From the IMG/VR virus record IMGVR_UViG_3300021182_000253: 64,000 bases of DNA. One strand, given 5' to 3'. The notes beneath the pieces were generated by a model, which ran no database searches, had not been told where the DNA came from, and worked only from the letters and a program-made list of their open reading frames with translations. The position numbers and the translations under genes were made by a program. The stretch comes from a virus. The stretch's first letter is position 1, and each line of letters opens with the position of its first letter. Of this stretch, positions 27,497 to 53,743 are shown in pieces.

Positions 27497-27772
27497 TTAC
27501 CAAAGTAGAGGGATACCTGTCTTTCTAGATTTACCGCATCTGGTACATATTCTAGTCAAACCATCAGCGGATTCCAGATCATAGAATTTTCTTATTGTCA
27601 TTTTTCTAGACTTGCTGAAAATAGGCTTATAATCTTCTTTGATATTTATAGGTATTTTGAATTTTATGTTTTCACGTATTAAAAATACCGCCATTGAAGA
27701 ATCTGCATAACACCTAGAACAACGAACTCGATTAGCTAGCAACCTAATTTTGTTGGATATCCAATTATTCAT
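27497..27772 (-). CDS. Hypothetical Zn-ribbon protein
   Basis: CSRC...CTRC; start refined to MNNWIS. Confidence 0.5.
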   Translation of the reverse strand: MNNWISNKIRLLANRVRCSRCYADSSMAVFLIRENIKFKIPINIKEDYKPIFSKSRKMTIRKFYDLESADGLTRICTRCGKSRKTGIPLLW

Positions 27773-28475
27773 CTGTTTCTTCATCTGATTCTTCGGTATC
27801 CTCAGCAACATCTTCAACGTTATTGGTACTACCCTTCTTAACTTCCCTCTTGAGCAGTTCTGGTTGTTTTTTTGCTGTAGGTAGAATTTTATCTATCAAG
27901 CCATATTCGAGGGCTTCATTTGCTGATAGATACTTATCCATCTTAGTATCTCTTTTAATCTTGGCTTTGGTATGTCCAGTGTGTCTTGCCAGTATCTCGG
28001 TAAGACGATCTTGAAGTTCTTTGAGTTCTTTTGTGCCTATTTCTATTTCGGCATTTGAGCCAGCCAGACCTTCGACTTGAATTTGGTGAATCATGATTCT
28101 GGCATTAGGCATTGCGTAACGCATACCCGCCGACCCCGAGGCTAGAAGTATTGCCGACGCCGAACTTGCTTCGCCAATACAAACCGTCTCTACCGGGGCC
28201 TTGACTCTCTGAATCATATCATAAATAGCAAAGAAACCCTGAGCTAACCCGCCGGGACTATTGATCCATAGCTTTATTTTCTGCTCGCTATTTTCCCTGT
28301 CTAGTAAAAATATCAATGAGGTAATTTCACTAGTAACTTCCTCGTCTATTTCACAATCTAAACAAATCACTCGGTCTTTCATCAGCCGAGATGACACATC
28401 GTATATCCGTTCTCCGTCCTTAGTCTTCTCAAAAAAAATTGGATTAAGATTGGTTTTCCGCATATTTAGCCTCAA
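27765..28475 (-). CDS. clpP: ATP-dependent Clp protease proteolytic subunit
   Basis: YDVSSRLMKDRVI, INSPGG, ASSAS (Ser), RIMIHQ (His), DKYLSANEALEYGLIDKI (Asp). Confidence 0.95.
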   Translation of the reverse strand: MRLNMRKTNLNPIFFEKTKDGERIYDVSSRLMKDRVICLDCEIDEEVTSEITSLIFLLDRENSEQKIKLWINSPGGLAQGFFAIYDMIQRVKAPVETVCIGEASSASAILLASGSAGMRYAMPNARIMIHQIQVEGLAGSNAEIEIGTKELKELQDRLTEILARHTGHTKAKIKRDTKMDKYLSANEALEYGLIDKILPTAKKQPELLKREVKKGSTNNVEDVAEDTEESDEETDE

Positions 28476-31548: not shown

Positions 31549-32343
31549 TTAATCCATATTACTGGAATCAAAATCAAATTCTTCGTCATCATCCTCGTCA
31601 TCATCCTCGTCTTCATCTGATGATGCTTCATCACTTGGACTTTCCAACAATTCTTCTACCTTCGTGATGGTCTCGGCGAAGTTCTTAACCTTCCTAATTG
31701 CGTCCTCAATCAAAGAAAGTTCCTTGCCGGTTTTGCTAGCTATGTATGCTGCATTGTAGTCATTGGCATCGACCAATGACATAACAGCCTTTGCACCCAA
31801 GAATAGATCTTGGCAAACATTTGCCAATACCTCATCAACACCAAACTTAAGAAGTGCCTGTTCCAATGTTGGAACTTCTTCTTCGTCAGATTTACTTTCA
31901 TCAGGATCAATTCCGTAAATGAATTGAAGATCTGAACGGAGATCTTGTAGAAGTTCTCCCATCATATTCTGGCCTTCACCGCTTCTACCAGTTCCCCAGA
32001 ATTCATCATAACCCTCCATGACGATTGGTAATCCGCCTGTCTTCACAAGCATTTCAGATAAAGAAATCGCTTCAAACTTCTGACGTATAAGAAGCTTCAT
32101 GATCTCTTCACCATTAAAATTATCTCTCTTCTTCAGAGAGCGGACAATCTTGCGGGCTTCACGAACACTTTCAGTCTCGGCAATCTGCTGCCTAATCTCA
32201 CGGTCATTTGTCTTAGATGCCTGATAAGCATGTTCAAGAGTTGGGAATGTTATACCGCCAAGAACGATATTAATCCTGTAATCATTTCGAAGCCAATCGA
32301 TATTACCAACAATAATCTTTTCCATTATATTTCCTTCTTCCAA
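31549..32343 (-). CDS. NADAR (YbiA-like) protein with an acidic C-terminal extension
   Basis: FPTLEHAYQASK, QKF, FWG...GQNMMGELLQDLR. Confidence 0.85.
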   Translation of the reverse strand: MEEGNIMEKIIVGNIDWLRNDYRINIVLGGITFPTLEHAYQASKTNDREIRQQIAETESVREARKIVRSLKKRDNFNGEEIMKLLIRQKFEAISLSEMLVKTGGLPIVMEGYDEFWGTGRSGEGQNMMGELLQDLRSDLQFIYGIDPDESKSDEEEVPTLEQALLKFGVDEVLANVCQDLFLGAKAVMSLVDANDYNAAYIASKTGKELSLIEDAIRKVKNFAETITKVEELLESPSDEASSDEDEDDDEDDDEEFDFDSSNMD

Positions 32344-34279: not shown

Positions 34280-34834
34280 TCACCCAAAATCAAAAGGAAA
34301 GTTTATTTTAGCGAATTCTCCAAAGTATTTAATTGCTGCTATATCATAAGCTTTAGCCGCTTCAATTTCTTTATCAAAATAACCAAGATTTATTGTTTTA
34401 TGTTTTTTGCTATTTGGCCTTAAATCACCAGCCGCAATTGACGAGTGCCATTTATTAAGTTTATTAGACCAAGACACACCTTTGTATTGAGAGGAACAGT
34501 TTTTTCTTTTTGCTTTATTCCTATTATTATCTAATGATCTTGCTTCTCTTAAATTATTAGATTGATTATTAATGCCATTTCTATCTCTGTGATCCAATTG
34601 TACAATTTTTCCATTTACATTTGGATATAATAACCACCATATTTCATGGTGCATTTTAATTACTTTTTGTTTACCATTTTCAAGCGAAATTACTCTGCAC
34701 GCATAATATGTAAGATGATCTTTGACAGCAAACCATTTCCATTGGTTTATATATGAAAAATGTTTATCGTCAATTAAAGCAATTTGGCACTGAGTTAATG
34801 ATATCTCTTTCATTATTCGTCCGATCCTGACCAT
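34280..34834 (-). CDS. HNH-AP2 homing endonuclease
   Basis: DHRDRNGINNQSNNLR; SSQYKGVSW...NLGYF..EIEAAKAYD. Confidence 0.9.
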   Translation of the reverse strand: MVRIGRIMKEISLTQCQIALIDDKHFSYINQWKWFAVKDHLTYYACRVISLENGKQKVIKMHHEIWWLLYPNVNGKIVQLDHRDRNGINNQSNNLREARSLDNNRNKAKRKNCSSQYKGVSWSNKLNKWHSSIAAGDLRPNSKKHKTINLGYFDKEIEAAKAYDIAAIKYFGEFAKINFPFDFG

Positions 34835-38190: not shown

Positions 38191-38697
38191 CTATGTGTTA
38201 CAAACTGATTGGCCGGATTTTAGCACTTCAATTAGTTCATCAAGCCCGGTACACAATTTCCTATCCGCTAGATAAAATGTATCGGTTATTTTTCTAGTTC
38301 TATCGAATTTAGATTCTTTTGACCACAAATTTGATGTTGATGACATTAGGCAGATCATACATCCAGTAGGTCTAGAGATGAATACATATGCTAATGGCTT
38401 TACTTTTTTCCCATCAAATCCAGATACCGTATCTACGAATAAGGTTTTGTAAGGAAAGGATAATGTATATGTAAATGCTTCGTTGCGGCTTTTCGTTTCG
38501 ATCGTATGTCCATTGACAATTAAGTCTTTGGAAGACATGTACGCGCCGGCATCTTTGATTGAATCCCGAATCGTAAGCTCGGGCATCTCAACTTTCAAAC
38601 CGTGCAACTCGAAGAATAGTTTCGGCAATTTTTGCCATTCGAAACCCTCTTTTAGTTGGGAGAAGAATAAGTCGTCATTATCAGACCAGTTTGTCAT
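38191..38697 (-). CDS. Hypothetical protein, possible PD-(D/E)xK nuclease fold
   Basis: KDLIV...IETKSR. Confidence 0.55.
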   Translation of the reverse strand: MTNWSDNDDLFFSQLKEGFEWQKLPKLFFELHGLKVEMPELTIRDSIKDAGAYMSSKDLIVNGHTIETKSRNEAFTYTLSFPYKTLFVDTVSGFDGKKVKPLAYVFISRPTGCMICLMSSTSNLWSKESKFDRTRKITDTFYLADRKLCTGLDELIEVLKSGQSVCNT

Positions 38698-38855
38698 TTA
38701 TAATTTTTGAACAAGATTGCGTGTAAGAACCTTATGCATTCTTGCGAGCACTAAGTATCTTAGTAAAACACACTCAATAGGTCATTTACAATCAAATGTA
38801 GTTCCTGCTTGTATTCGTTGCAATTTGGACCGGCAAATGTAGATAATAAAAGTTT

Positions 38856-38978
38856 CGCAGTCGAGGTGAAATGCTTGTTTTGTTGCAAATGCAGGAATTG
38901 AACCTACTATTTTTCTTTTCAAGAGAAATGCCTAACCATTTGGCATAATTGCGTGTATGCATCTCGGATTTGACTGCG
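38856..38978 (-). ncRNA. Element A: degenerate tRNA (core 38881-38953, anticodon loop CU-UGA-AA) nested in a closing stem module
   Basis: Minus strand CGCAGUCAAAUCCGAGAUGCAUACA-[tRNA fold, T-loop UUCAAUU, ends ACA]-AAACAAGCAUUUCACCUCGACUGCG. Confidence 0.75.
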
Positions 38979-38979
38979 T

Positions 38980-39087
38980 TGGTGGAGCTAGCCGGAATCG
39001 AACCGACTTATTCGTGTAAGCATTAAAGGATGCGTCATAAATGACGCGAGTGGTAACGCTAATTACTTGATTTTAACCTTTAGCCCC
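38980..39087 (-). ncRNA. Element C: tRNA-Ala/tmRNA-TLD-like RNA carrying the shared module
   Basis: GGGGCUA/UAGCUCC acceptor stem with G3:U70, encoded ACCA, T-arm GUCGG-UUCGAUU-CCGGC; no D-stem or anticodon arm; 108 nt. Confidence 0.8.
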
Positions 39088-39106
39088 AGAGTGTAATAAA
39101 AGTTTA

Positions 39107-39230
39107 CGCAGTCGAGGTGAAATGCTTGTTTTGGTACGTAATATAGGAATTGAACCTATTGATGTTTTCGTGATAGGAAAACGCTCAACCATTGAGCAAA
39201 TTGCGTGTAAGCATCTCGAATTTGACTGCG
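39107..39230 (-). tRNA. Element B: tRNA (core 39132-39206, anticodon AUC, encoded CCA) nested in the same closing module as element A
   Basis: Full cloverleaf ACGCAAU/AUUACGU, GCUC/GAGC, UUUUC-CUAUCAC-GAAAA, AUAGG-UUCAAUU-CCUAU, ACCA; flanks nearly identical to element A. Confidence 0.8.
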
Positions 39231-39234
39231 TTAG

Positions 39235-39363
39235 CGCGGGTGCGTGGAGTTGAACCACGGCGTGTAAGCTTTGCTTGATGTATCCTTCTGAGGGGACACG
39301 AGTAAAAAAGCTGAATGTATCTGATTAAATGTCAGGCGAAGCACCGAGCTTCTATACACCCGC
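39235..39363 (-). ncRNA. Element D: tRNA-like RNA with the shared module in the variable-arm position
   Basis: GCGGGUG/CACCCGC acceptor, GAAGC-UCGGU-GCUUC D-arm, CGUGG-UUCAACU-CCACG T-arm. Confidence 0.8.
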
Positions 39364-39384
39364 AAGAGTTTAAGCTATCGAGTA

Positions 39385-39451
39385 ATAGTGCTTTTTGGTT
39401 GTCCAGATACTCCGATCTGGACGTACGTTATTCCTAGCGTGTAAGCACTAT
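39385..39451 (-). ncRNA. Element F: mini module enclosing a hairpin that ends in ACCA
   Basis: AUAGUGCUUACACGC...GUCCAGAU-CGGAGU-AUCUGGAC-AACCA-AAAAGCACUAU. Confidence 0.6.
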
Positions 39452-39467
39452 ATGTTGATAACTTTAG

Positions 39468-39597
39468 TGGGGCTTTAGGGAGTTGAACCCAAGCGTGTAA
39501 GCTTCACAAAGATGCATCCTTTTACCGGGACGCGAGGGATAAAGCTGAGTTTTCCAACTTATGTAGTAGGTGCGGAACCGATCCGCTGTGAAGCCCC
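39468..39597 (-). ncRNA. Element E: tRNA-like RNA, paralogue of element D
   Basis: GGGGCUU/AAGCCCC acceptor, GCGGA-UCGGU-UCCGC D-arm, T-loop UUCAACU, same internal module. Confidence 0.8.
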
Positions 39598-39662
39598 ATG
39601 TAGAAAATATATCTAACTATTAGTAGAATTCGAAAAAATATTCGATTTCGAACCGGGAGGGC

Positions 39663-39690
39663 ATTCTGTCTGAATCCCAGCCTCTGTCAA
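39663..39690 (-). promoter_or_regulatory. Candidate promoter for the RNA cluster
   Basis: TTGACA-N16-CAGAAT about 65 nt upstream of element E. Confidence 0.45.
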
Positions 39691-39754
39691 ACTCGTTTTC
39701 TTCTTCTGGTATTTATTGGAGTGAGGCTAAGGTCTCTCGACTGTAAATGAATAG

Positions 39755-40270
39755 TCAACATAAAGTATTATCAGTGCAATTATTATCTAATGATGAGCAT
39801 GAAGTGAAATTTAACAATGCGCATTTGCCGTGCAATCTTTTAGATGCGTTATCATAAGCGAACGCAGCATCTATTTCGTTGTCAAAACTACCAAGATGGA
39901 TTTGCTGTCCTTCTGAGGTTATGTAAGCGAACCACTTTAAATCTCTTCTAAAAAAGCACACCCCTTTATATTTAGAGGATCCGGCCCACTTTCTTCTATT
40001 AATCTGATTTTCTGATCCTAGACATATTCTAAGATTATATCTTTGATTATTAGTTCCATTATGGTCTATGTGGTCAATATGCACTTTGGAATTTGTGATA
40101 CCAAAGATCACTCTGTGCATTCTTATAGTTTTCTTATTCTCTTTGCGTTGAGCATAATATACATCCCAGCGCTTATCATAATAAGCGTACCATTTATACT
40201 TATTTACCGATTCAAAATCATCGTCATCTACAAGCGCAACCTGTCCTTGTGTTAATTGAATTTCTTTCAT
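39755..40270 (-). CDS. HNH-AP2 homing endonuclease
   Basis: IDHIDHNGTNNQRYNLR; SSKYKGV...IHLGSF..EIDAAFAYD. Confidence 0.9.
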   Translation of the reverse strand: MKEIQLTQGQVALVDDDDFESVNKYKWYAYYDKRWDVYYAQRKENKKTIRMHRVIFGITNSKVHIDHIDHNGTNNQRYNLRICLGSENQINRRKWAGSSKYKGVCFFRRDLKWFAYITSEGQQIHLGSFDNEIDAAFAYDNASKRLHGKCALLNFTSCSSLDNNCTDNTLC

Positions 40271-41253
40271 TAAGCCACTAGAACTCTATTGAACGCAGAA
40301 ATATCAAGCTTAATCATTATCTCCGAACCAAATTGCACATCAGATTGATATTGAGAATATTCTTTACAGCCCCATTCATTATTCTTGGTTCTGTAAAGCG
40401 ATACAGATTTCCAAGTTCCGATGGACGGTTCGATTGCAGCAGCGGCCGCAATCACATCGTGCAAGGCTTTCCCGCCCGGGTGCTTCTTGAAGTAATGATT
40501 CATCCCAGCCTTAATGAAGTCAAGACCTGGGTGCGCTCCACTTGGGATCATCTCATTCGCTTCTGGGCTGTGGATAATTCCGTGGCAAACATTTTTTGGA
40601 ACGAAATTCCTAACTTCAATTGGAGGGCTAATATCTCTGGTTAGATACTCGGCCGCTCGCCAATCACCACCTAGATTGAAAGTTGGGCAGGTAAGCCGTC
40701 CATCGAACTTGGCCAATCGAAATTCTGGAGGCACGATATTGTCACCAGCAAATCCTCCTTGGCAAGTCCATTTTGAAAAGAATGATCCTTGTGATATCCT
40801 TCCGCCATCTGGAATGTTGGTCATGGCGTGAGCGGCATCTGCAATGTTTGTTAGAGCAGCTCCAGTCACCAAGTGAAATTCTCGTGGCTCGAAAGATATT
40901 CCGCGCGGTGGAATTATGACGTCATGAATTACTTCAGTTGCCGTTCCATCAGGATCTTGATCTGGGACTCTACCCAACCAATCATAATGGAATTGAGACA
41001 CTCTTGGTTTATCCCCTTTTGGAGTTCCAACCCCAACAGGAATCTTTTTACCAAGAAGATTCAATACATGTTTGACAAGGCCAACTTGATCTTTTCCGCC
41101 CGGATGAATGGTGACTGCCACTAGATTAGATCTCGGATGCGTTGCGAGCAATGCCATCGCAAATACATCATCAGGATCTGCAGTCTCCATATCGAAGAGG
41201 AAATTAGATATCATCTGTATTATCCAACTCGAACTCTTGGCACTTGCCATCAA
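40270..41253 (-). CDS. Inosine/uridine-preferring nucleoside hydrolase family protein
   Basis: FDMETADPDD, GAALTN, FNLGGD, ALHDVIAA. Confidence 0.8.
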   Translation of the reverse strand: MMASAKSSSWIIQMISNFLFDMETADPDDVFAMALLATHPRSNLVAVTIHPGGKDQVGLVKHVLNLLGKKIPVGVGTPKGDKPRVSQFHYDWLGRVPDQDPDGTATEVIHDVIIPPRGISFEPREFHLVTGAALTNIADAAHAMTNIPDGGRISQGSFFSKWTCQGGFAGDNIVPPEFRLAKFDGRLTCPTFNLGGDWRAAEYLTRDISPPIEVRNFVPKNVCHGIIHSPEANEMIPSGAHPGLDFIKAGMNHYFKKHPGGKALHDVIAAAAAIEPSIGTWKSVSLYRTKNNEWGCKEYSQYQSDVQFGSEIMIKLDISAFNRVLVA

Positions 41254-41410
41254 TGTTTCTCAAATGACATGGATGAGAAGTCACTTTGCTACCGCCATTT
41301 ACATAATCACGTTCTATTTTAACAGACTTAGCACAGCGTAATGACTTAACCCCTTCCTGGCTATCTACAATTACATATCCAATTAGTTTCATTTCTTCTT
41401 GAATAGGCAT
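41204..41410 (-). CDS. Small hypothetical protein
   Basis: 68 aa. Confidence 0.35.
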   Translation of the reverse strand: MPIQEEMKLIGYVIVDSQEGVKSLRCAKSVKIERDYVNGGSKVTSHPCHLRNIDGKCQEFELDNTDDI

Positions 41411-42051
41411 GTCATACTTCTATTGCTTCTATTTCTTGTATTCAAGCTTACAAAATCGATATGACTTTGCAGATAGTTCATCTCGTCAATTGTCATATAC
41501 ATACTATGTATATTATCTGGATTCTTTCTAATGAAATTTTCAATCATTGATAGAGTGCTGTTTGCGGGAGTTGCTCTAAACTCTGGATAGACATTCGGCA
41601 ATGAAGTGTGCAAATCTTCTATTACGTAATATCCACCAGGCTTAACAAATGGAAACAGGAAGCCGAAGCTTACCTGCTGTTGTTCCATGTAATGACCGCC
41701 ATCATCAACAATGATATCGAAGTCCCCGCCATGAGTATCAATGAAACTTTGTAGCTGGCTACGATTGGCCTGATCAGCCACGAATGTTTTCACTATATCA
41801 GTGTCATATTCGTTTTTTGGTTCTATATCAATTCCAAATACGCTAGCTTGTCTAAAGTAATTATTCCAGAGTTTCAATGAATCTCCGTTGTAAATACCTA
41901 TTTCCAATATTCTAATTGGTTTGTACATGTACTGAAAAAAGAAGCGCTCATAAATCTCAACGAAATTATGATCATGTGCTCCTTTATCAGTGCTATTAGC
42001 TAGCGCAGATAAATCACCAAGATGAACATTAACGGATACGGAAGGGTTCAT
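41389..42051 (-). CDS. Class I SAM-dependent methyltransferase
   Basis: ILEIGIYNGDS, FGIDI, FDIIVDDGGH, PGGYYVIED. Confidence 0.88.
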   Translation of the reverse strand: MNPSVSVNVHLGDLSALANSTDKGAHDHNFVEIYERFFFQYMYKPIRILEIGIYNGDSLKLWNNYFRQASVFGIDIEPKNEYDTDIVKTFVADQANRSQLQSFIDTHGGDFDIIVDDGGHYMEQQQVSFGFLFPFVKPGGYYVIEDLHTSLPNVYPEFRATPANSTLSMIENFIRKNPDNIHSMYMTIDEMNYLQSHIDFVSLNTRNRSNRSMTCLFKKK

Positions 42052-43224: not shown

Positions 43225-43521
43225 TTACCCAGCGAGCCAACTGGAGAGAAGATGCATACCGAATGGAGTCTTCGGACGGAGAAAGATTCGGTTGTATGGA
43301 GTCTCTTCCGTAGATGCATATCGATCGACAATGAAGTCTGCGAAGTTTGCATTCGGATCTGCCGCGATGTTGGCAACTCCTCCTGTACGTACCGCCTCAG
43401 TTACCCAAGTGCGAACGTCAGTCTCTGTGGCATCGAAAGAAACGGGGTCGCGAAGATCTCCATTGTTTCCTGCCCAAGTAACGTTTACGATTGCTTCGTT
43501 AGCTGCAATTTGTGTATCCAT
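43225..43521 (-). CDS. Putative ubiquitin-like (beta-grasp) protein
   Basis: 98 aa with a beta-beta-alpha-beta-beta pattern ending RIFLRPKTPFG plus a 10-aa tail; strong AGGAGG RBS; adjacent to JAB. Confidence 0.55.
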   Translation of the reverse strand: MDTQIAANEAIVNVTWAGNNGDLRDPVSFDATETDVRTWVTEAVRTGGVANIAADPNANFADFIVDRYASTEETPYNRIFLRPKTPFGMHLLSSWLAG

Positions 43522-43553
43522 GTTATCCTCCTATGAGCGCAACCTTAGTTGCT

Positions 43554-43937
43554 TTAGTAATGAGAGAGTTCCCTTAACTTGTCCATCCAATCCCAATTAT
43601 TTGGGATTAGTTCAACTGTGACAATGTGTCTAGCATATGTTCCTTTATCATTATCAAAGAGACATAATACTTGTGAATCTGAGCTTAGAATGGGCCAGTT
43701 TAGGTGTTTCCCCAGTGCGGCCTCGATGGCCGCGAAAGTTGTTGTATCGGTGTATGATGGTCCGGGATAACCACTCCCTGGATGAGTATGAGCGAACCCG
43801 GTTACTTTATCACGATTTTCCCAAATTACATCCCAAAGATCGCGGCTATCTGGAAGTGCTCCGCCATTGCGATCGTGAGGCGTGTGCCAATGTATAACGG
43901 AATTATTTGGACCAAGCAATATTCCGGCTTCTTGCAT
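43554..43937 (-). CDS. JAB/MPN+ (JAMM) metallopeptidase
   Basis: E3...AHTHPGSGYPGPSYTD (HxH-x8-SxxD). Confidence 0.85.
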   Translation of the reverse strand: MQEAGILLGPNNSVIHWHTPHDRNGGALPDSRDLWDVIWENRDKVTGFAHTHPGSGYPGPSYTDTTTFAAIEAALGKHLNWPILSSDSQVLCLFDNDKGTYARHIVTVELIPNNWDWMDKLRELSHY

Positions 43938-43949
43938 GATTATTTTTTC

Positions 43950-44906
43950 CTAATCTACATGTCTGTAAACAACCAAGAGACGATCTCTTATAGCTTCTCT
44001 AATTACAGAAGGTAAGCTTTCAAGAGTGAAAAATGTGTCACCCTTTTCTCCGGTATGATGATCTGTAAGACAAATTCCAGAATCAATTATTCTTAGTGTT
44101 TTCTCATCACAAACACATTCAAATCTTCTTTGTTCTAGCCTGAATCTAACAACCATCTCGCCGCGTCTGGGTGCTCTTCGATGATCAAGATAATGAGCAC
44201 CACCTACTGCTAAAGCCGCTCTCGCAGCTTCACCGAAGTCAATCTGAGCAAGTTCTCGTCGCGTCTCGGCATTGCCAAGATTTGCGATTAGTGCTTGTCG
44301 TCTTTCTTCCCGAGCACGGCGCTCTTCCTCTTCGCGTCGAAGACGTTCAAGTTCTTGACGGCGGCGCTCGGCTTCAATTCTCTGCCACACTTCCATGCGG
44401 AAAGCCGCATCCAAAGCAGGCACTACACTTTTGATACCCCTACATTGATAGAAATCGGTAGGATTATCAAGAAAAATTTCCATTACTTCATCTTCTGGGC
44501 CAATAGGCATTTCCTGTTGCTTGAAAATTAGAGGGCCATCATCACAGGTACGCCCGGCAGAAATCCGCACAAATCGGTCAAGGCCATCTTCTAGCATAAA
44601 AACAGGCTCAGAATTGGCTGCAATCGTCTTTGGGTCAGGATCAACCCGAGCATCATCGAGTACCAAGCGGTCACCCACAAGGTACCCGGTAACTGTGTTG
44701 CTCAGGATATTGGGATTGGCCCCAACTGCCGAAATCTCGTAGCGTGTGGCTTTTCGCCCGGAAATAGTAAAGGAATACCAACCATGTTCGATTGGTAGTC
44801 TGTTCTCAATATTCCAGACTTGTCCGTTGAGGCAGAGAGATCTCCCGCCAGTCCAAGGCAAAGTAATGCTGTTGCCTTCAGTCTCTAGAAGATCTCTCCA
44901 TCCCAT
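43950..44906 (-). CDS. Hypothetical protein with a coiled coil and a putative E2-like C-terminal domain
   Basis: C-terminal IIDSGICLTD resembles the E2 G-x-ICL catalytic-Cys motif; operon context. Confidence 0.5.
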   Translation of the reverse strand: MGWRDLLETEGNSITLPWTGGRSLCLNGQVWNIENRLPIEHGWYSFTISGRKATRYEISAVGANPNILSNTVTGYLVGDRLVLDDARVDPDPKTIAANSEPVFMLEDGLDRFVRISAGRTCDDGPLIFKQQEMPIGPEDEVMEIFLDNPTDFYQCRGIKSVVPALDAAFRMEVWQRIEAERRRQELERLRREEEERRAREERRQALIANLGNAETRRELAQIDFGEAARAALAVGGAHYLDHRRAPRRGEMVVRFRLEQRRFECVCDEKTLRIIDSGICLTDHHTGEKGDTFFTLESLPSVIREAIRDRLLVVYRHVD

Positions 44907-44951
44907 TTGTTACCTACAGTCGAGGATTGTTATTCACTTAGATAAGATTGT

Positions 44952-45488
44952 ATGAAAGTAATTCCACTAACACAAGATCAAGTGGCGTTTGTTGATGATG
45001 ATATGTTTGAATATCTTAATCAGTGGAAATGGTACGCCGATAAGTGTGGAAACACTTATTATGCTTGTCGTAATGTATACAATTTTGGACCAGAAAGAAA
45101 ACATATAAGGATTAAAATGCACCATGCTGTATTTGGGCGTAACGTTCAAATAGACCATGCTGATGGAAACGGTTGCAACAATCAAAAAGAAAATCTAAGA
45201 GAGGCTTCTTCACTTGAGAACAGCAGAAATCGTAAAAAGAATACGGGCTGTTCTAGTAAATACAAGGGTGTTTATTGGAATAAATCACACCAAAAGTGGG
45301 AAGCCTCAATTAGGGTCGGTAAGCCTCTGCGGGATGGCCGTCACTGCAAAATGTATTTAGGTAATTTTGATAGTGAAATTGAAGCCGCAAAAGCTTATGA
45401 TCAACAAGCGATTAAGTTCGGTGAATTTGCCAAACTAAATTTCGCAATCAACTCGCCCACGCAGGTTTGTGTAGCAAATCAACCTTGA
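44952..45488 (+). mobile_element. HNH-AP2 homing endonuclease inserted antisense within the operon
   Basis: IDHADGNGCNNQKENLR; SSKYKGVYW...YLGNF..EIEAAKAYD. Confidence 0.88.
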
Positions 45489-46907
45489 TGATCTTATCCA
45501 CCAAGGTTTCTCGAACAAACGAGTATGCAGCTGCCGGAGCTTGTCGAACCGGAGTTGCCGCAATCAAGTTTCGAAGAGTACGCGGAGTTGCATAAACATC
45601 TTCAAATGTTCGATTGTCGATATTGAAGCAAGGAATATTAAGCTTTGCTGCCGTATCAACAACACAAGAACCACGGTCACCTGGCACTTTGATCAAACCA
45701 AAAGCCATTGGGCGAAGTCCGGAATTCCGAACATCATTCTCGAAGGTTGGGTGTTGACCTTCATCACCAACGAAGACAATGATTGAATCTTCGTCATCCT
45801 TTGGCTTGAATTTAGATATATGGCGTACACCACAGCCGTAATCTGTTCCACCGCTTGCACGGAAGCCCATGAAAGCATTGTCGATACCAGCCTTACTTGC
45901 AACTCGTAGAGGAACTTCACGAGCTTGTGTGTTGAATACACAAGCGTGAATATGATCAAGTGGAATTCCTTGAACGAATTTAGCCACATATTGTTTTGCC
46001 ATTTCTAAAGAAGCATTCATAGAACCAGAGATGTCTACGACGAAATAGATCCTGATTCCTTTAATTACTTCTTCAGCTGCTTTCTTGATGGCATTATCAG
46101 CACCATCTTGTAACTTCTCCTTGATTTCATTTGAAGTTACATTGCGTGCAATATTGGCTGAGCGCATATCTTCTGAATTCTTGATAGCGCGTTCCCAACG
46201 AGCCTTGATGTCATGAACATTAAGTAGTCCTAACTCTTCAAGAGTAGGAGTTCGAATGATCAAGTCCTTATCAGACATGAGATTCGCCTCAATGATTGAT
46301 GCCATGATTGCGCGGGTCAGACCAATATTCTTCGGCAACATGCCCTCAACTCGCTTGAGGCCAATGCGCTCGGATTGAATCCGCTCACAGATTTGCTCTT
46401 CGTTTAGGCCTTCCCAAGACTCTGCCTGAGTGACCGCAACTCCAATAGCCATCTCACGACGGCCATCTTCTGCTTGCTTCTGCTTCCAGCGCAGAAGCTC
46501 GAAGAACTTAGGAGATGTTGGCTTGTAGCCGACACGCTGTGCGAGGCTCATGACGGTGCTTCGGAAACCAGCCTTGATCAAACCCTCAAGCAACTTGGGG
46601 TTCTCTTCACGATACTGCAGCCACTTATCAACAGTCTTTGCCCAGCGCCCAATGAACGGCTTGCGATCGGAGCGAAGACTTGGCGATACATCCAAGCAGC
46701 AACTTCTGGGAAGATGCCAGCTTCACGATATTCACCCAAGACCGCGCCATTGGCGGTGACGATCTTCTTGTCTTCGCGTAGGATTCCGATTTGGGTCTTG
46801 GTGGTTTTCTTGCCAGTTTTCGCTAGCTTATAAACCAACTTCTGCCCGCCCACGATCTTGTGCGTAACAGGTTCCCATCGAACGCCAATTATGTATAAGG
46901 TGATCAC
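45448..46907 (-). pseudogene. vWA-domain protein split by a frameshift/deletion at about 46675
   Basis: Upstream ORF (46578-46907) ...AAWMYRQV joins out of frame to RSDRKPFIGRW... of the 415 aa ORF; C-terminal vWA MIDAS FVVDISGSM, GGTDY, VGDEG. Confidence 0.75.
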
Positions 46908-46951
46908 TATACGCCAGTACTGTCTGTAGAATTCTTTCTGCGGGCCCTAGA

Positions 46952-47359
46952 TTATCTTTGTCCATTTTTATTCTCTTTTCGCCTCTTGCGAGTTCTAATT
47001 CTGTGGCAATTTGCGCAAACTAATTCACATTTTTCAATCTCAGCCAATAATAAAGGCTCAGATCCCTTATAGATCATAGCCGATACCTTATCTATTTTTG
47101 TTTCTGGATTTATGTGGTCGAAATCCATAACCTCGACCGGAAATTTTTTGCCACAATCACAACAAGGACCAGTTTTTAAACTGTCCAATAATAAACGTAA
47201 CTTTTCATACTGACGTTTATTGCTTGCTATGATATCTGCTTTACGATCAGGATAAACATATGATCTAAAAATTGCATCACATGGTTTGCACCGTGGTGCA
47301 CGATATCCCAATGCTAAACCAACGAAAATTATCAGTTGGTTTTGTTTGTAGACAGTCAA
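46952..47359 (-). CDS. HNH endonuclease
   Basis: PCCDCG...MDFDH...KCELVCANCHRIRT. Confidence 0.88.
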   Translation of the reverse strand: MTVYKQNQLIIFVGLALGYRAPRCKPCDAIFRSYVYPDRKADIIASNKRQYEKLRLLLDSLKTGPCCDCGKKFPVEVMDFDHINPETKIDKVSAMIYKGSEPLLLAEIEKCELVCANCHRIRTRKRRKENKNGQR

Positions 47360-49891: not shown

Positions 49892-51187
49892 TCACTTACG
49901 TCCATGGTTTTCCTCACTGATACCCTTGACACATAGAACTTGCTTGAGAGTATGTACTATTGAAACTAAGTCTGCTTGTGCAGCCATGACATCTTCTATT
50001 GGCTTGTACGCTCCTGGTGTTTCATCAATTACATCAGATTCAATACGGCATTCTACGCCTTGAACTGCTGCTCGATGGTCCTTCAAACTGAAGGTGTTGC
50101 GCGCTTCGGTGCGGCTCATCTTTCGCCCAGCACCATGAGATGCTGAACAAAAGCTTTCTCTATTGCCAAGGCCGCTCACAATAAAGCTCTTGTCTCCCAT
50201 AGATCCTGGGATAATTCCAAGTTCGCCCTTACGAGCGCTGATGGCTCCTTTGCGAGTAACCCATACTTTCTTGCCAAAATGGAATTCATTTTGGACATAG
50301 TTGTGATGACAGTTGACCTGAAGATCAGTTGCCTCGAACTTTGGAATGCCTTTGCAGCCCTTCAAAGTCTTGAGTACAGTACGCATCATCAAGTCACGAT
50401 TCATAGCCGCAAATTGCTGAGCCCATTTAACTGACTCAATAAAGTCATCAAAATACAAACTATCCTCTGGTAAAAACGAAAGGTAGATATCTGGCAAGCT
50501 ATCATTAAAGAACCACTTGATAGCCTCGCGCTTTGCAAGGTCGATGAAGTAAGATCCAATACGATTACCAACACCACGGCTTCCCGAATGTAGCATTACC
50601 CATACGCTATCATCTTCATCCAAACAAAGTTCGATGAAATTATTTCCAGTTCCAAGGGTTCCTAATTGGTTCTCTGGTGGCTGACGCGTTTTCAGTCTTG
50701 CATGCTTGGCAACAATCTTCTGATAGCCTGGCTCTAATTCAGCCCAGGCAATTTCTACGATTGAAGGTACTTCCCCGCGCCATGAGCCAATGTCATGTAC
50801 GCCGCCATTATCAGATCGTCCATTTGGAACAGCTGCTTCAATTTCAGAACGGATTGCAGCCAAGTCTTTCGGCAAGTGAGATCTCTTTAATGTGGTTTGA
50901 ACACAGGCCATTCCACATCCTATGTCAACTCCAACAGCCGCTGGAATGATCGCAGTGGTCGTTGGGATAACAGAGCCGATAGTAGCCCCTTCGCCAACGT
51001 GCACGTCAGGCATTGCCGCTACATGGCGGAATATGAATGGCATATTGGCAACGTTGAAGAGTTGCTTCTGCGCGCCTTCTTCTACAGTAACCCCAACAGT
51101 CCAGGACTTGATTGGAAATTTAGCTCCAGTAATTAAGTTAATGTTATCATGACGATAAACATTCATGTTTGAGTAATCGTTTGCCAT
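49892..51187 (-). CDS. rtcB: RNA 3'-phosphate/5'-OH ligase RtcB
   Basis: MPDVH, VGVDIGCG, GTLGTGNNFIE, LHSGSRG, HHNY, SASHGAGR, DETPGAYK. Confidence 0.96.
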   Translation of the reverse strand: MANDYSNMNVYRHDNINLITGAKFPIKSWTVGVTVEEGAQKQLFNVANMPFIFRHVAAMPDVHVGEGATIGSVIPTTTAIIPAAVGVDIGCGMACVQTTLKRSHLPKDLAAIRSEIEAAVPNGRSDNGGVHDIGSWRGEVPSIVEIAWAELEPGYQKIVAKHARLKTRQPPENQLGTLGTGNNFIELCLDEDDSVWVMLHSGSRGVGNRIGSYFIDLAKREAIKWFFNDSLPDIYLSFLPEDSLYFDDFIESVKWAQQFAAMNRDLMMRTVLKTLKGCKGIPKFEATDLQVNCHHNYVQNEFHFGKKVWVTRKGAISARKGELGIIPGSMGDKSFIVSGLGNRESFCSASHGAGRKMSRTEARNTFSLKDHRAAVQGVECRIESDVIDETPGAYKPIEDVMAAQADLVSIVHTLKQVLCVKGISEENHGRK

Positions 51188-51246
51188 ATTAAATTTATTG
51201 CGAGCATACGCCCGCTATCCCGATTGTCTAAGACAATCCCACATTA

Positions 51247-51275
51247 ATTATATAATCGAATCTTGTATATTACAA
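51247..51275 (-). promoter_or_regulatory. sigma70-like promoter for rtcB
   Basis: TTGTAA-N17-TATAAT. Confidence 0.6.
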
Positions 51276-51300
51276 GGATATGAGGACCAGAATTCTCGAC

Positions 51301-51789
51301 CTAAATATTAGCGTAGTGTTTTGGGTTGAATGTATTTGTTTTGGGCGCTTCGTATCTTGGTTTTGGTTTTACTTCGAGTCTTGAGATTTGGATTTGTTCC
51401 TGCCCACAAATTGAAGTGAATACTGTGAAGAATATGCCAGGAACCAAATCAATCTCGAATAATCCAATTGCCTCACCAACATAATACCTATCTCCGTTTT
51501 GGTCTATCATTGGATGTATATCGATAGAGAACCTTCCGTTGTTTATAGCGACCCCGCCGCTGCCTCTGGCCTTACTGCGCCGCGATGGATCGATTGGGCC
51601 TATTTGAAGTTCTTCAGCTCCTGATTCAGCCAGGAACACCATGAATGATGCCCCCTTCTCAAACTTCATAATCGCTGGAAATTGTAGTTTTCCGATGAAG
51701 TAAGGGTTACCGGCGTTATCTTTTGGAACCCTTATCAAGTTGATTGGGCACTTGGCTTCAGGATCAATTTGTAGATTTTCCATTATCAA
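51301..51789 (-). CDS. Hypothetical protein (internal duplication ..YFIGK / ..YYVGE)
   Basis: 162 aa. Confidence 0.65.
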   Translation of the reverse strand: MIMENLQIDPEAKCPINLIRVPKDNAGNPYFIGKLQFPAIMKFEKGASFMVFLAESGAEELQIGPIDPSRRSKARGSGGVAINNGRFSIDIHPMIDQNGDRYYVGEAIGLFEIDLVPGIFFTVFTSICGQEQIQISRLEVKPKPRYEAPKTNTFNPKHYANI

Positions 51790-52130
51790 TTTCCGTTCTT
51801 GGTTTGTTTTTTGAGACCAACAATTAATCTGGTAAGAGTTTCTGATGGTATTTGTCCAATGAATTTACCAGAGGAACAAATGATAGTAACCTTTTCCACT
51901 TGAGATATTTTACAAACACCTCCATCTCTTCCTTGTTTTATTTCGTATCCTGTAATTATTCCACTTTTAATACACAAAGATAAAGCCTTCTTGAACCGAT
52001 CTATCTCCAAACCAGATTTGGCTCTGCTCTCGAATTTTGAGAATATTACAGAACGTGGAACAACTTTTCCTTCTTTGCAACAATCTTGGAGTACAGAGAT
52101 TAGAATTGCCAGATGATCTTCTTGCATCAA
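51786..52130 (-). CDS. Hypothetical protein (possible winged helix)
   Basis: Coupled ORF. Confidence 0.55.
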   Translation of the reverse strand: MMQEDHLAILISVLQDCCKEGKVVPRSVIFSKFESRAKSGLEIDRFKKALSLCIKSGIITGYEIKQGRDGGVCKISQVEKVTIICSSGKFIGQIPSETLTRLIVGLKKQTKNGN

Positions 52131-52912
52131 AAATCTCGCTCTGGTCTGAAGATATCACTTCCGGTTGTTAGTATAGTTCGAAGTCTTTCCCTTTCTTTCT
52201 TATCAGCGAATAGAGGTACATCAAAATCCAATATCCATTTGTGGTGCGTAACCTCTCCCTCTGCTGTTTGGACTAGCCTGGGGGCTACGTACGCGGCAGA
52301 TCCATGATGGAATGATGCCGGAAAATCATCGAGCGATATGCCGGCATCGTCAAGTATCTTCTTGCGCTCCTCTACACCTACACCATTTAAAGCGGCACTG
52401 CGCCCTATAAGCGAGTAGATTGATTCATCAATGGCGTACTGCATACAACAAAACTGCCTATACATTATGTAGTTTATTACTTCGCTAATATTTGGAATAC
52501 CAAATACATTTGCTTTAAAAGCTATACTGCCTTCAAGCTCTGGGGGCTGGTCGATTTCCCATAGTTGATTCATGAACTCGTAGGTTGCCATCGATGCTGA
52601 TGACGAGCACATGTCCTGAACATCATTTCCGAACCAAGGATCTTCATCTTCGCTGCGGTCATTGCGCAGAGCAATTATGATCTTGTCCGAGTATTGGTAG
52701 CCAAATACCGCGCCGTCAATTTGCTTGACGAGAGATAACATGGTTCCGTTGAACATCGCCATTGTTTTATGACAGAAAGGCTTCTGTATATTTTGGGTGG
52801 CTCTTGAAAATGAGCGACCATCAATTTTTATTATAACTGGGATTCTACTGATTATTCTCTGCGAAGTAGATCCCTCATAGGCTATCATTCTCTGCTTTAG
52901 TGTTTGAGCCAT
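52127..52912 (-). CDS. tRNA(His) guanylyltransferase Thg1-like protein
   Basis: IKIDGRSFSRAT and YQYSDKI (both catalytic Asp), F.ANVF..P. Confidence 0.85.
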   Translation of the reverse strand: MAQTLKQRMIAYEGSTSQRIISRIPVIIKIDGRSFSRATQNIQKPFCHKTMAMFNGTMLSLVKQIDGAVFGYQYSDKIIIALRNDRSEDEDPWFGNDVQDMCSSSASMATYEFMNQLWEIDQPPELEGSIAFKANVFGIPNISEVINYIMYRQFCCMQYAIDESIYSLIGRSAALNGVGVEERKKILDDAGISLDDFPASFHHGSAAYVAPRLVQTAEGEVTHHKWILDFDVPLFADKKERERLRTILTTGSDIFRPERDF

Positions 52913-52933
52913 ACATTCTCGATGGCTCCATAT

Positions 52934-53179
52934 TCAGGGCGCGTTGCCTGGTTCAGTACTCATGGGAGCCCTACCTCTGTAATATACCTCTACATTCTTG
53001 TTTCTTTGCGCATGAATATCAATCATTGAATCAGAGGAGATTCCGCATCCTGGACATTTTGTCCGCAAGATTGCCCCATCTTTTCCATGAAAATCAAGTT
53101 CACTTCCGCAAATACTGCAAGATAATAGCTTGTTCTGTGTTGATTGCATAATGCTATATTCTGGCATAGAACATGCCAT
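52934..53179 (-). CDS. Zn-ribbon hypothetical protein
   Basis: CSICG...CPGCG. Confidence 0.45.
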   Translation of the reverse strand: MACSMPEYSIMQSTQNKLLSCSICGSELDFHGKDGAILRTKCPGCGISSDSMIDIHAQRNKNVEVYYRGRAPMSTEPGNAP

Positions 53180-53212
53180 ATGTCAAGGCAATGTTTCCGG
53201 CCATTTGGCCAG

Positions 53213-53743
53213 TTACCAGATGAGGTATTTGGGCGGCACTGTTTCGGTTAGCCAAACGTTGTTGGTTGAGCGTTTGAACTGATAGCCGTCCGCTGACATT
53301 TGTTTTGCGCTAATAGTCAAGACACAAGGATTCCTACGCCGCTTCTTTGCGATGTCAAGCGCTTTATCTTTGTCATCGAACAGATGAACATCATGGCGTT
53401 CCATCTTCAACAATCCAAGTTCTGATATTCTTTTATTGTTTTCGTTAGATGTTCCGTGATAGAGAAACTCTGGTGGTTCAATTATCTCATATCCAAGATC
53501 AACATCAATCGAATGTCCCTGGCTAGCGCGAATGTTCTTTTTGTTCTCGCTGAATTCGAAGCGTTTCTTATCATTCTTTTCAACAACTTCTTCTAGCTCA
53601 GACAAATTCCATTTGATAGATTTAAGAAGATTATTTACTGATACCCACCCTTGCTCATCAAGAGTTAGCCCAGCTTTAGATGGATCATGTCTTAGAATAA
53701 GGCTAAGGTATTTGCTTCTTTTTATTAGTTCTTTTGATTCCAT
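53213..53743 (-). CDS. kptA: RNA 2'-phosphotransferase Tpt1/KptA
   Basis: SKYLSLILRHDP, IRASQGHS, LYHGT, VHL, VWLT..VP. Confidence 0.95.
   Translation of the reverse strand: MESKELIKRSKYLSLILRHDPSKAGLTLDEQGWVSVNNLLKSIKWNLSELEEVVEKNDKKRFEFSENKKNIRASQGHSIDVDLGYEIIEPPEFLYHGTSNENNKRISELGLLKMERHDVHLFDDKDKALDIAKKRRRNPCVLTISAKQMSADGYQFKRSTNNVWLTETVPPKYLIW

Follow-up and report, generated by a model that had tools for sequence, protein, structure and literature searches.

A family of tRNA-mimicking RNAs encoded beside a predicted Ro60-like protein and ubiquitin-like genes in phages and bacteria

What are the tRNA-like elements in an ORF-poor stretch of the viral record IMGVR_UViG_3300021182_000253, and what might they do? 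The window, the 64,000-nt stretch of this record that was analyzed, contains a region in which the largest ORF overlapping 38717-39437 is 61 aa. The initial annotation placed six structured RNA elements (A-F) at 38856-39597; pattern, pairing, and covariance-model scans confirm all six on the minus strand, which is the RNA sense of every element, with a decayed seventh copy beside them.

Architecture of the array

The elements are listed below with the evidence for each. R1 denotes a covariance model of the closed form of the module, which was used together with pattern scans to collect the family.

39468..39597, minus strand: element E, closed-type tRNA mimic (sequence; R1 74.4 bits on 39468-39547)
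39374..39462, minus strand: element F, permuted module (pairing scan; MFE fold; ortholog in locus L119)
39235..39363, minus strand: element D, closed-type tRNA mimic (R1 76.2 bits on 39235-39313; MFE fold)
39108..39229, minus strand: element A, permuted module around a tRNA-like core (ARAGORN; Rfam tRNA; pairing scan)
38980..39087, minus strand: element C, module and T arm without D or anticodon arm (R1 75.5 bits)
38857..38977, minus strand: element B, permuted module around a tRNA-like core (ARAGORN; Rfam tRNA; pairing scan)
38697..38761, minus strand: decayed seventh copy (R1 16.8 bits, E 0.04; aligns to the intact L119 copy G')

All six elements share a module consisting of a helix (P1), an internal loop with an invariant CUC, a second helix (P2), and a 3' tail, ACA-M-GC. 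The invariant nucleotides are restricted to the internal loop and the tail, and on inspection the internal loops measure 4-7 by 4-9 nt. Two circular permutations of the module exist: in the closed form (C, D, E) it occupies the variable-arm position of a tRNA-like body, and in the permuted form its halves surround a tRNA (A, B) or a minihelix (F). The sequence GCWUACACG has six exact occurrences in the 64 kb, all on the minus strand and all inside 38952-39502. A pattern scan of the window for the closed form gave three occurrences versus 0.00 expected; the pairing scan for the permuted form recovered A, B, and F in the window and nothing in shuffled sequence. The decayed seventh copy has kept CUCG, the hairpin, and UCUUACACGC, and its acceptor, D, and T arms are gone.

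Elements D and E have the architecture originally described for them: a 7-bp acceptor (GCGGGUG/CACCCGC in D, GGGGCUU/AAGCCCC in E), a 4-nt linker, a 5-bp D stem around UCGGU, a 7-nt anticodon-like loop lacking U33 (CAUUUAA and UACAUAA, respectively, both with A33), the module, and a T arm with the loop UUCAACU. P1, the internal loop, and P2 are all visible in the MFE fold of D, and in the L119 ortholog of E the acceptor, D, T, and module helices all show compensatory changes. The further proposals that C carries the D/E module and that A and B carry it in permuted form are borne out, the latter by the pairing scan, and F proves to be permuted as well. In F the flanks form P2 (6/6 pairs), while P1 (8/8 pairs) surrounds an 8-bp hairpin followed by ACCA; the MFE fold agrees, and an ortholog lies at L119:4110-4205. 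The core of A (39206-39132) has the anticodon AUC, identical in its L119 ortholog, together with an encoded CCA and a C4xA69 mismatch, and its tail ACACGC continues into the 5' strand of the acceptor. The core of B (38953-38882) places the anticodon UGA on a class I body without a long variable arm, has two acceptor mismatches, and lacks CCA.

The cores of A and B are scored as tRNAs, reaching 51.7 and 48.4 bits with Rfam RF00005 against a gathering score of 29, and ARAGORN calls them Asp(atc) and Ser(tga). Elements C, D, E, and F, like the closed-type relatives, fall below tRNA recognition by both tools. A cmscan of 38500-40000 at E<=10 returned only tRNA, a weak tmRNA match, and chance matches, with no ribozyme or intron family, and assigned no Rfam family to C-F. 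The original description of the elements as nonstandard tRNAs thus stands for C-F; for A and B it stands only with regard to their odd anticodons and mismatched acceptors. A canonical 7-nt anticodon loop with U33, a purine at position 37, and an anticodon fitting the body was found neither in D, E, A, B, and C nor as a property of the family. Across the family, U33 is present in 37 of 65 seven-nt anticodon-like loops (missing in 43%), 33 of 98 such loops are not 7 nt (size range 3 to 9 nt), and A34 "anticodons" are common. Because of these features, and because C has no anticodon arm, the RNAs are probably not decoding tRNAs.

Two other classes of tRNA-shaped RNA invite comparison. Element C resembles tmRNA (RF00023) in combining a G3:U70 acceptor pair, discriminator A, encoded ACCA, and a T arm with the lack of a D stem and anticodon arm, and a helix exits its core where P2 does in tmRNA. 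However, the tmRNA model gives C 24.9 bits, short of its gathering score of 47, and aligns nothing but the termini; C is 108 nt long, without a tag reading frame or pseudoknots; ARAGORN reports no tmRNA; and its L119 ortholog has no encoded CCA. The closed form also recalls class II tRNAs and allo-tRNAs, in which a helix likewise leaves the variable region, but the arm here, of ~50-70 nt, has an internal loop and a tail that are invariant, and the frequent absence of U33 and the failure of ARAGORN and the Rfam tRNA model to recognize closed forms set the two apart.

Two further candidates were rejected. CUUACAC in the module is identical to the anticodon loop of tRNA-Val(UAC), which suggested anticodon-loop mimicry, and most of what the first collection scan brought up was ordinary tRNA-Val genes; the tail reduces to N-ACA-M-GC in distant members, where the preceding nucleotide is base-paired and covaries in P1. 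A CRISPR repeat or Cas6 site was considered as well; the module bears no relation to the repeat unit of the array at ~58.1-58.6 kb. Close to the RNA array are two HNH-AP2 homing endonuclease genes.

Family size, covariation, and processing

Searches with R1 (E<1e-4) gave 115 matches to the closed form in 52 sources, among them about 47 IMG/VR contigs that come for the most part from phages of 100-536 kb. In 99 of the 115 matches, a 7-bp acceptor partner without mismatch lies upstream. The permuted form gave 66 matches, from many independent contigs, versus none in shuffled sequence. A first loose pattern scan had yielded mostly chance matches, such as L008, which is coding sequence. G1:C72 is present in 93 of 100 copies and CCA is encoded in 30 of 100. 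The family ranges from huge phages (up to 536 kb), in which elements sit within tRNA arrays, to Myxococcota and other bacteria. It is absent from Rfam 15, and no paper describing the RNAs or the operon discussed below was found; this large group of tRNA look-alikes is apparently undescribed.

Covariation over >100 homologues gives strong support to the proposal that the elements form a selected RNA structure. In an alignment of 11 sequences covering P1, P2, and the T arm, pairing holds in 91% of cells and both partners have changed in 15 of 20 pairs, a score that 0 of 500 shuffles reached. With 111 distinct sequences, pairing holds in 92% of cells, both partners have changed in 18 of 19 pairs, and again no shuffle among 500 reached the score; slid controls on the same sequences gave 38-53% pairing. 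These data demonstrate both the structure and its conservation. They also bear on whether the array merely reflects duplication, or a mobile element targeting tRNA genes, with no function at the RNA level. Such an origin would account for the tandem copies, the decayed copy, and the homing endonuclease genes nearby, but it is effectively refuted by the covariation: compensatory changes are pervasive (698 double-change cells observed vs. 192 expected), copies within one genome differ strongly in sequence yet keep their helices, and the family is conserved from phages to Myxococcota.

Genes for RtcB, a Thg1-like protein, and Tpt1 are present in the phage, and RtcB occurs in four of five module-bearing records tested. 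The elements could be read as genuine tRNA genes interrupted or flanked by a conserved intron-like processing element, which an endonuclease would excise, RtcB (with Tpt1) resealing the tRNA, in analogy to the archaeal bulge-helix-bulge motif. The occurrence of one module both within and around a tRNA body, the proximity of RtcB and Tpt1, the frequencies of G1:C72 and encoded CCA, and the location inside tRNA arrays of huge phages would all suit such genes. However, removal of the module leaves a variable region of 11-14 nt and no canonical junction, the anticodon loops are often non-canonical or, in C, lacking altogether, inspection found no 3-4-3 bulge-helix-bulge geometry, no Rfam intron family was matched, and RtcB is missing from one 68%-complete record. 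Moreover, the module loop residues do not vary between phages and bacteria, an indication that they function in the mature RNA. We consider the intron reading quite unlikely.

The archaeal bulge-helix-bulge motif occurs inside tRNAs and around rRNAs, and circular permutation is typical of small self-cleaving ribozymes. The module resembles the former, and permuted ribozymes such as hammerhead and twister, in being one motif with two topologies, set inside a tRNA or formed from its flanks; it differs in having neither bulge-helix-bulge geometry nor a match to a ribozyme family. If the module were itself a small self-cleaving ribozyme that processes a polycistronic array, the co-occurring RtcB could act on the cyclic-phosphate and 5'-OH ends that it would produce, and both the two permutations and the confinement of invariant nucleotides to the internal loop and tail would fit. 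Cleavage in the closed form would nevertheless split the tRNA-like body, and no known ribozyme family was recovered at E<=10; we regard self-cleavage as very improbable.

The neighboring operon

Upstream of the RNAs in the window, in the same orientation and at a distance of 3.6 kb, lie vWA, JAB, and ubiquitin-like (Ubl) genes belonging to an operon that is conserved among loci encoding the RNAs and comprises a vWA protein, a 318-aa cysteine protein, JAB, Ubl, and ThiF/E1. Its members in the window are as follows.

45451..46956, minus strand: predicted Ro60-like (TROVE-fold plus vWA) gene, disrupted (tblastn of intact family members; Pfam VWA_2; fold of family members)
43950..44906, minus strand: 318-aa protein with invariant cysteines (family in 17 phage loci and most bacterial loci)
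43554..43937, minus strand: JAB/JAMM peptidase (weak Pfam Prok-JAB match, E 9e-4, 19.6 bits vs. a cut-off of 25; family in 20 loci)
43225..43521, minus strand: small ubiquitin-like protein candidate (alignment of 15 members; family in 21 loci)

The RNAs lie just downstream of the operon in 30 of 52 loci, sharing their strand with the vWA, 318-aa, JAB, Ubl, and ThiF genes and often beginning 50-200 nt after ThiF. The linkage is recovered from the protein side as well: a search with a vWA profile identified 31 bacterial loci, 21 of which have same-strand R1 matches beside the operon. At L330, three RNAs accompany a vWA gene without Ubl genes and adjoin a TrmA-family methyltransferase. Loci of this type suggest that, where the operon is incomplete, it is the Ro60-like gene that the RNAs track. 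Among five further module-bearing contigs, three have a vWA gene elsewhere, and the two that lack it are incomplete. The nearness of the vWA, JAB, and Ubl genes is the main clue to the function of the RNAs.

A full-length model of the vWA protein returned TROVE/Ro60 structures as the top Foldseek matches (9kop, 1yvp, 9l5y, 2nvo; 540-580 columns), and with the N-terminal domain alone 9kop ranked first. Because VIA scored only the vWA domain of the full-length model, the N-terminal domain was also folded alone; an exhaustive VIA search with it placed three Ro60 structures at the top of 48,161 chains (Z 9.7, 8.5, and 7.9; next 6.0). These matches, with low TM values (0.25-0.34) and modest Z scores, fall on a helical repeat. 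Pfam TROVE gave no match at E<=10 in five phage records, a PDB profile search found only the vWA domain, and the protein carries an extra N-terminal beta domain. The predicted models suggest that the N-terminal domain folds like Ro60/TROVE.

The remaining proteins are less readily placed. The 318-aa family has no Pfam or PDB sequence match and is not demonstrably an E2, and PDB profile searches of this family and of the Ubl family gave nothing credible. Members of the Ubl family end in RPKTPFG plus a short tail in the 15-member alignment. In the window itself the Ro60-like gene is broken, with a frame change and ~100 missing codons (family residues about 124-224), and tblastn did not find ThiF/E1. 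The RNAs are intact while this gene is broken and no E1 is found in the window; they may therefore work without the protein or with a copy outside the window.

Comparison with Y RNAs and proposed function

Ro60 and its Y RNA form an RNA-surveillance particle of ancient origin; what it does in bacteria and phages is poorly understood. Bacterial and phage Ro60 genes are flanked by tRNA-like Y RNAs (PMC4201824, PMC12135203). Examples of the YrlA type include the Salmonella rsr-yrlBA-rtcBA operon, M. smegmatis YrlA, which is cut by RNase P and receives CCA, and Yrl1/Yrl2 of Thermus phage phiLo (PMC4201824, PMC12135203, 10.1101/312249).

The RNAs described here share with the YrlA/Ro60 (Rsr) systems a location beside a Ro60-fold protein (here by predicted fold), often with several RNAs per locus; tRNA-like T and D arms and an acceptor stem; a link to RtcB-type RNA repair; and, in the permuted form, the Y-RNA layout, in which the two ends of the molecule pair into a terminal stem that carries a tRNA-like domain at its tip. 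On the evidence of their sequences, however, they are not members of YrlA. The YrlA motif GNCGAAN0-1G/CGAA, which in Y RNAs lies in the 5' strand of the terminal, protein-binding stem, is absent, the conserved residues being instead CUC and ACA-M-GC; a search of 38856-39597 for its N1 form, GNCGAANG, gave no match, and the N0 form is absent by eye. The order of parts here is acceptor, D arm, anticodon-like arm, module, and T arm with open acceptor ends, whereas YrlA has T-AS-D with a closed acceptor. The closed form places the module at the variable-arm position, and only A, B, and F have a terminal stem built from the 5' and 3' ends. The partner protein is missed by the TROVE HMM and bears the additional beta domain, and the operon adds Ubl, E1, JAB, and the cysteine protein.

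Since they are encoded beside a divergent Ro60-like protein, the RNAs are probable Y-RNA-type partners of it. The suggestion that they are a protein-binding RNA family thus gains indirect support, in the form of tight linkage to an operon whose largest protein has a predicted Ro60/TROVE-plus-vWA fold. We favor, as somewhat more likely than not, a reading of the array as Y-RNA-like tRNA mimics in which the module is a protein-binding platform. In this model, the small RNAs would be Y-RNA analogues that partner a divergent Ro60-like ring protein, whose operon also supplies a cysteine protein, a JAB peptidase, a ubiquitin-like protein, and, in relatives, a minimal E1. Two parts make up every RNA. 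The tRNA-shaped domain, which combines G1:C72, a 7-bp acceptor, a compact D arm containing GG, and a T arm, in many copies with an encoded CCA, should be recognized by host RNase P, the CCA-adding enzyme, and modification and repair enzymes. The shared module (P1, CUC loop, P2, ACA-M-GC) would be the specific protein-binding platform: in A, B, and F it is the terminal stem from the 5' and 3' ends, with the tRNA at the tip in the classic Y-RNA layout, and in C, D, and E the same stem is capped and projects from the variable-arm position. The Ro60-like protein may bind the RNA, and the particle may act in tRNA/RNA surveillance or in counter-defense together with RtcB-type repair; the 318-aa protein or a host factor is an equally possible binding partner of the module.

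An overlapping possibility, which does not exclude Y-RNA-like partners and of which the decoy version was raised in the initial annotation, is that the RNAs serve as baits or decoys that draw host anticodon nucleases, or as tRNA surrogates that withstand them. The tRNA body with its diversified anticodon-like loop would then attract or resist tRNA-cleaving defense enzymes, and the module would be a repair or sensing handle. Copies in one genome differ in the anticodon-like triplet (GUA, UCC, GUU, UUG, CAU, GAA, UUU, and others), position 33 is often A, G, or C, and the RtcB, Thg1-like protein, and Tpt1 noted above, with RtcB in most module-bearing records tested, are in keeping with such a role. 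On the other hand, C and the minihelix F keep the module without an anticodon arm, the loops span 3 to 9 nt, and the same RNAs stand beside the operon in bacterial chromosomes, where phage counter-defense is not directly applicable. As a full account, decoys appear unlikely.

More speculatively, and with little expectation that it will prove correct, the RNAs could, besides scaffolding a Ro60-like ring, be part of the Ubl machinery, a CCA-ended mimic or an RNP assembled on the module carrying or directing a Ubl activated by the minimal E1, or nuclease cleavage of the mimic switching tagging on. No RNA-dependent Ubl system of that type is known from any organism; if true, it would couple tRNA-damage sensing to protein tagging.

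The elements define a large RNA family whose consensus is clear, which comes in two permuted topologies, and for which a covariance model now works. The family is tied to a divergent protein of predicted Ro60-like fold and, unusually, to a ubiquitin-like activation and trimming cassette. The RNAs offer a testable handle on what these operons do, on tRNA mimicry in phage-host conflict over tRNA integrity, and on how one putative protein-binding RNA module is grafted onto tRNA scaffolds in different ways.

Among deposited phage genomes, blastn gave no match to the stretch, which is present in DNA metagenomes of peat, lake, and soil.

The RNA array and its module

The six tRNA-mimic elements A–F have their RNA sense on the minus strand of the window. 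They occupy a stretch in which no ORF exceeds 61 aa, flanked by genes for an HNH-AP2 homing endonuclease (39755-40270) and a 168-aa protein (38191-38697).

RNA elements of the array, in RNA order
39597-39468, minus: element E, first
39462-39374, minus: element F, second
39363-39235, minus: element D, third
39229-39108, minus: element A, fourth
39087-38980, minus: element C, fifth
38977-38857, minus: element B, sixth
38761-38697, minus: decayed copy, after B

The initial annotation had assigned D and E an identical architecture (acceptor, D stem, 7-nt loop lacking U33, structured module, T arm); all of its listed details are present in the sequence, and MFE folds reproduce the module. In this module, helix P1 leads into an internal loop with CUC at the end of its 5' side; helix P2 follows, then a 3' loop side whose first nucleotide is A, the P1 return strand, and the unpaired tail UACACGC, which continues into the T arm. 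Elements A, B, and F contain the same parts circularly permuted: the two P2 strands lie outermost, P1 encloses a tRNA-like core in A and B and, in F, an 8-bp hairpin with ACCA, and the acceptor 5' strand begins with the tail ACACGC. Within the 64 kb, the array stretch holds all six exact occurrences of the 9-mer GCWUACACG, and the closed-form pattern shared by C, D, and E occurs three times in the window against 0.00 expected. When loci were scanned by simple pairing for the permuted arrangement, 66 instances were returned, versus 0 in shuffled loci; a few of the 66 are artefacts spanning neighbouring closed copies, and among the matches are genuine units that enclose a tRNA, in many unrelated contigs. 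We infer that the module is a protein-binding platform, with its invariant residues in the internal loop and tail; its partner may be a Ro60-like ring or a 318-aa protein, both encoded in the associated operon, or a host factor.

The annotation had also held that the elements are not standard tRNAs. This stands for most of the array, as ARAGORN and Rfam called tRNAs only in the cores of A (Asp(atc), 51.7 bits) and B (Ser(tga), 48.4 bits). A permissive cmscan of 38500-40000 (E ≤ 10) returned a sub-threshold tmRNA match on the termini of C (24.9 bits vs 47) and, besides tRNA and tmRNA, chance matches only; no ribozyme, intron, Y-RNA, or other Rfam family was matched. It is very unlikely that the module, for all its permuted arrangement, is a permuted self-cleaving ribozyme. 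Querying deposited phage genomes by blastn gave no match, and the sequencing runs listed for this DNA include no RNA run. A resemblance of CUUACAC to the tRNA-Val anticodon loop was considered as mimicry and rejected, because this local resemblance is not conserved.

Covariation and decoding potential

In a close relative, IMG/VR contig 3300037225_000673 (L119/L120), the elements number eight and their order differs from that in the window: E, F, C, D, B, and A each have an ortholog there, and two more closed-type copies, G' and H', are present. Many of the changes between the two are compensatory, as in an acceptor (GGGGCUU/AAGCCCC to GCCGCUU/AAGCGGC) and a D stem (GCGGA/UCCGC to GAGGG/CCCUC). 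In a MAFFT alignment of 11 closed-type sequences from four phage lineages, 91% of cells are paired, 15 of 20 pairs show changes on both sides, and none of 500 shuffles reached the observed covariation score. We built a covariance model of the closed form (R1) from these 11 sequences; scanning IMG/VR by pattern and then applying R1 yielded 115 matches (E < 1e-4) from 52 sources (~47 distinct contigs); module-bearing contigs are mostly 100-536 kb. Among 111 distinct rows, 92% of cells are paired, both-side changes occur in 18 of 19 pairs, and the score was reached by 0/500 shuffles, with pairing of only 38-53% when the 3' partner was slid; this alignment was fitted to R1 and its figures lean toward the model, and the independent MAFFT alignment agrees. 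The invariants CUCG, ACAMGC, and the T loop are partly imposed by the search pattern. Bacterial RNAs found via the associated protein also score 25-59 bits on the phage-built model. The elements thus constitute a real RNA family under strong selection, with two topologies; the chance that they are non-functional repeats is negligible. The family is apparently new to the literature, as a full-text search found no paper describing it or the operon combination.

A perfect 7-bp acceptor partner lies 45-61 nt upstream of the module in 99 of 115 closed copies. Of 100 distinct full-length copies, 93 have G1:C72, 7 have G3:U70, and 30 encode CCA; the trailer of nearly all others begins with C. In the closed body, a compact GG-containing D arm is followed by an anticodon-like arm, often by a further small hairpin, and finally by the module and the T arm. 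Ordinary decoding is argued against by several features: the anticodon-like loop is 7 nt in 65/98 copies, and only 37 of these loops have U at position 33 (A 12, G 8, C 8); the triplets vary widely (GUA 10, UCC 7, GUU 6, UUG 6, CAU 5, GAA 4, and others); A34 'anticodons' are frequent in permuted units, with AUC in both A and an unrelated phage; and C lacks the anticodon arm entirely. That the RNAs are decoys or baits for anticodon nucleases, as the annotation had suggested, is unlikely, and would be compatible with the Ro60-partner reading set out below. Separately, the 536-kb megaphage IMGVR_UViG_3300009031_000221 contains at least six closed-type and two permuted RNAs within arrays that hold over 25 canonical tRNA genes, and some of these RNAs repeat an anticodon that a canonical tRNA of their own array also carries (e.g., GAA, UUU).

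Operon linkage and the vWA protein

Clustering of ORFs around all 52 module-bearing loci revealed a conserved gene row on the same strand as the RNAs in 30; the RNAs are usually directly downstream, often 50-200 nt past the last gene.

Conserved gene row
1: vWA protein, ~630 aa
2: 318-aa protein with invariant cysteines
3: JAB peptidase
4: ~90-aa protein ending in RPKTPFG
5: minimal ThiF/E1, ~190 aa

The window holds four of the five genes (43225-46956), separated from the RNAs by ~3.6 kb of unrelated genes, including a 177-aa ORF. No ThiF/E1 homologue was found within the window; in L119/L120 the full row is intact, ThiF included. The 318-aa family has no Pfam or PDB sequence match.

Genes of the window
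34280-34834, minus: HNH-AP2 homing endonuclease, paralogue of the 39755-40270 gene
39755-40270, minus: HNH-AP2 homing endonuclease, inserted between operon and RNA array
40270-41253: nucleoside hydrolase, between operon and RNA array
41389-42051: methyltransferase, between operon and RNA array
43950-44906, minus: 318-aa protein, starting MGWRDLL, with invariant cysteines in an E-C-x-C ... G-x-C-L block
45451-46956, minus: Ro60-like/vWA gene, broken across two reading frames (tblastn)
49892-53743, minus: RtcB, Thg1-like protein, and Tpt1/KptA (Pfam 396, 63.6, and 158 bits)

Elsewhere, the window encodes ClpP (27765-28475), a NADAR protein (31549-32343), and an NAD-dependent DNA ligase (55123-57381).

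An independent, protein-first test with a vWA-protein profile identified 31 loci in bacterial genomes, mostly Myxococcota MAGs and one isolate, Paraliomyxa miuraensis; other labels include Gemmatimonadota, Methylobacter, Rickettsiales, and alpha-, delta-, and unclassified Proteobacteria. These carry the same operon, with one to three same-strand R1 RNAs in 21 of the 31, placed directly 5' of the vWA gene or 3' of ThiF. In one Myxococcota MAG (L330, 6852-11363), three RNAs precede a vWA gene that is followed by a homologue of the TrmA/RumA-family tRNA U5-methyltransferases in place of the cysteine-protein, JAB, ubiquitin-like (Ubl), and E1 genes. The RNAs therefore track the vWA gene, and this locus suggests that the RNA and Ro60-like pair is the core of the system. 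Among five further module-bearing phage contigs, three have the vWA gene elsewhere on the contig; the other two are 68% and 27% complete.

Sequence methods detect only the vWA domain in this protein, and the Pfam TROVE model does not match it. The best Foldseek matches of the full-length AlphaFold model (pLDDT 70.5) are TROVE/Ro60 entries (9kop, 1yvp, 9l5y, 2nvo), over 540-580 columns at E 1e-8 to 5e-7, with TM of only 0.25-0.34. Folded alone from 23 sequences, the N-terminal 427 residues (pLDDT 82.6) form a small beta domain followed by helical repeats; Foldseek again places 9kop first (E 3e-3, probability 1.0), and an exhaustive VIA search of 48,161 chains ranks D. radiodurans Rsr top (Z 9.7, 252 residues aligned), followed by Thermus phage Ro60 (Z 8.5) and Xenopus Ro60 (Z 7.9), with the next match at Z 6.0. 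In Ro60 itself, the vWA domain comes after a helical TROVE-like ring. These models point to a probable, not proven, divergent Ro60-like protein.

Comparison with Y RNAs

Bacterial and phage Ro60 genes are flanked by tRNA-mimicking Y RNAs, some of which undergo RNase P processing and CCA addition, and the system has been linked to RtcB (PMC4201824; PMC12135203); it is also mentioned in a jumbo-phage survey (PMC7824862). The module RNAs conform to this tRNA-mimic logic, and in their permuted form they are laid out like Y RNAs. Unlike YrlA, however, they lack the GNCGAAN0-1G motif, differ in domain order, and match no Rfam family, and are therefore read as a new Y-RNA-like family rather than as YrlA members. 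Most likely, they are the RNA partners of the divergent Ro60-like protein, whose operon also encodes a putative Ubl system; RNAs and protein together would form Ro60/Y-RNA-type RNPs with tRNA mimicry.

RtcB is present in four of five module-bearing records checked, and its co-occurrence, with the other repair genes, is consistent with a function in the surveillance of tRNA/RNA damage or in counter-defence. Whether the module is instead an intron-like processing element, with RtcB resealing the tRNA, is doubtful. More speculatively, the acceptor mismatches of A and B, forced by the conserved tail, might serve as substrates of the Thg1-like 3'-5' polymerase.

The RNAs of the window are intact although its Ro60-like gene is broken and E1 is absent: by tblastn, family residues 5-27, 36-123, and 225-628 lie in different frames and ~124-224 (~100 codons) are absent. 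In this phage the Ro60-like system may be decaying, or its missing parts may be supplied from beyond the window; alternatively, the RNAs may function without these proteins. A CRISPR-array spacer of the same phage (58308-58346; plus strand YRDVGEAMMLIY) corresponds to the conserved F-R-x-V-G-E-A-M-x-L block at alignment positions ~175-189 of the Ro60-like family. This block falls within the missing segment, so that the spacer would be directed at intact copies in related phages, and not at the phage's own gene.
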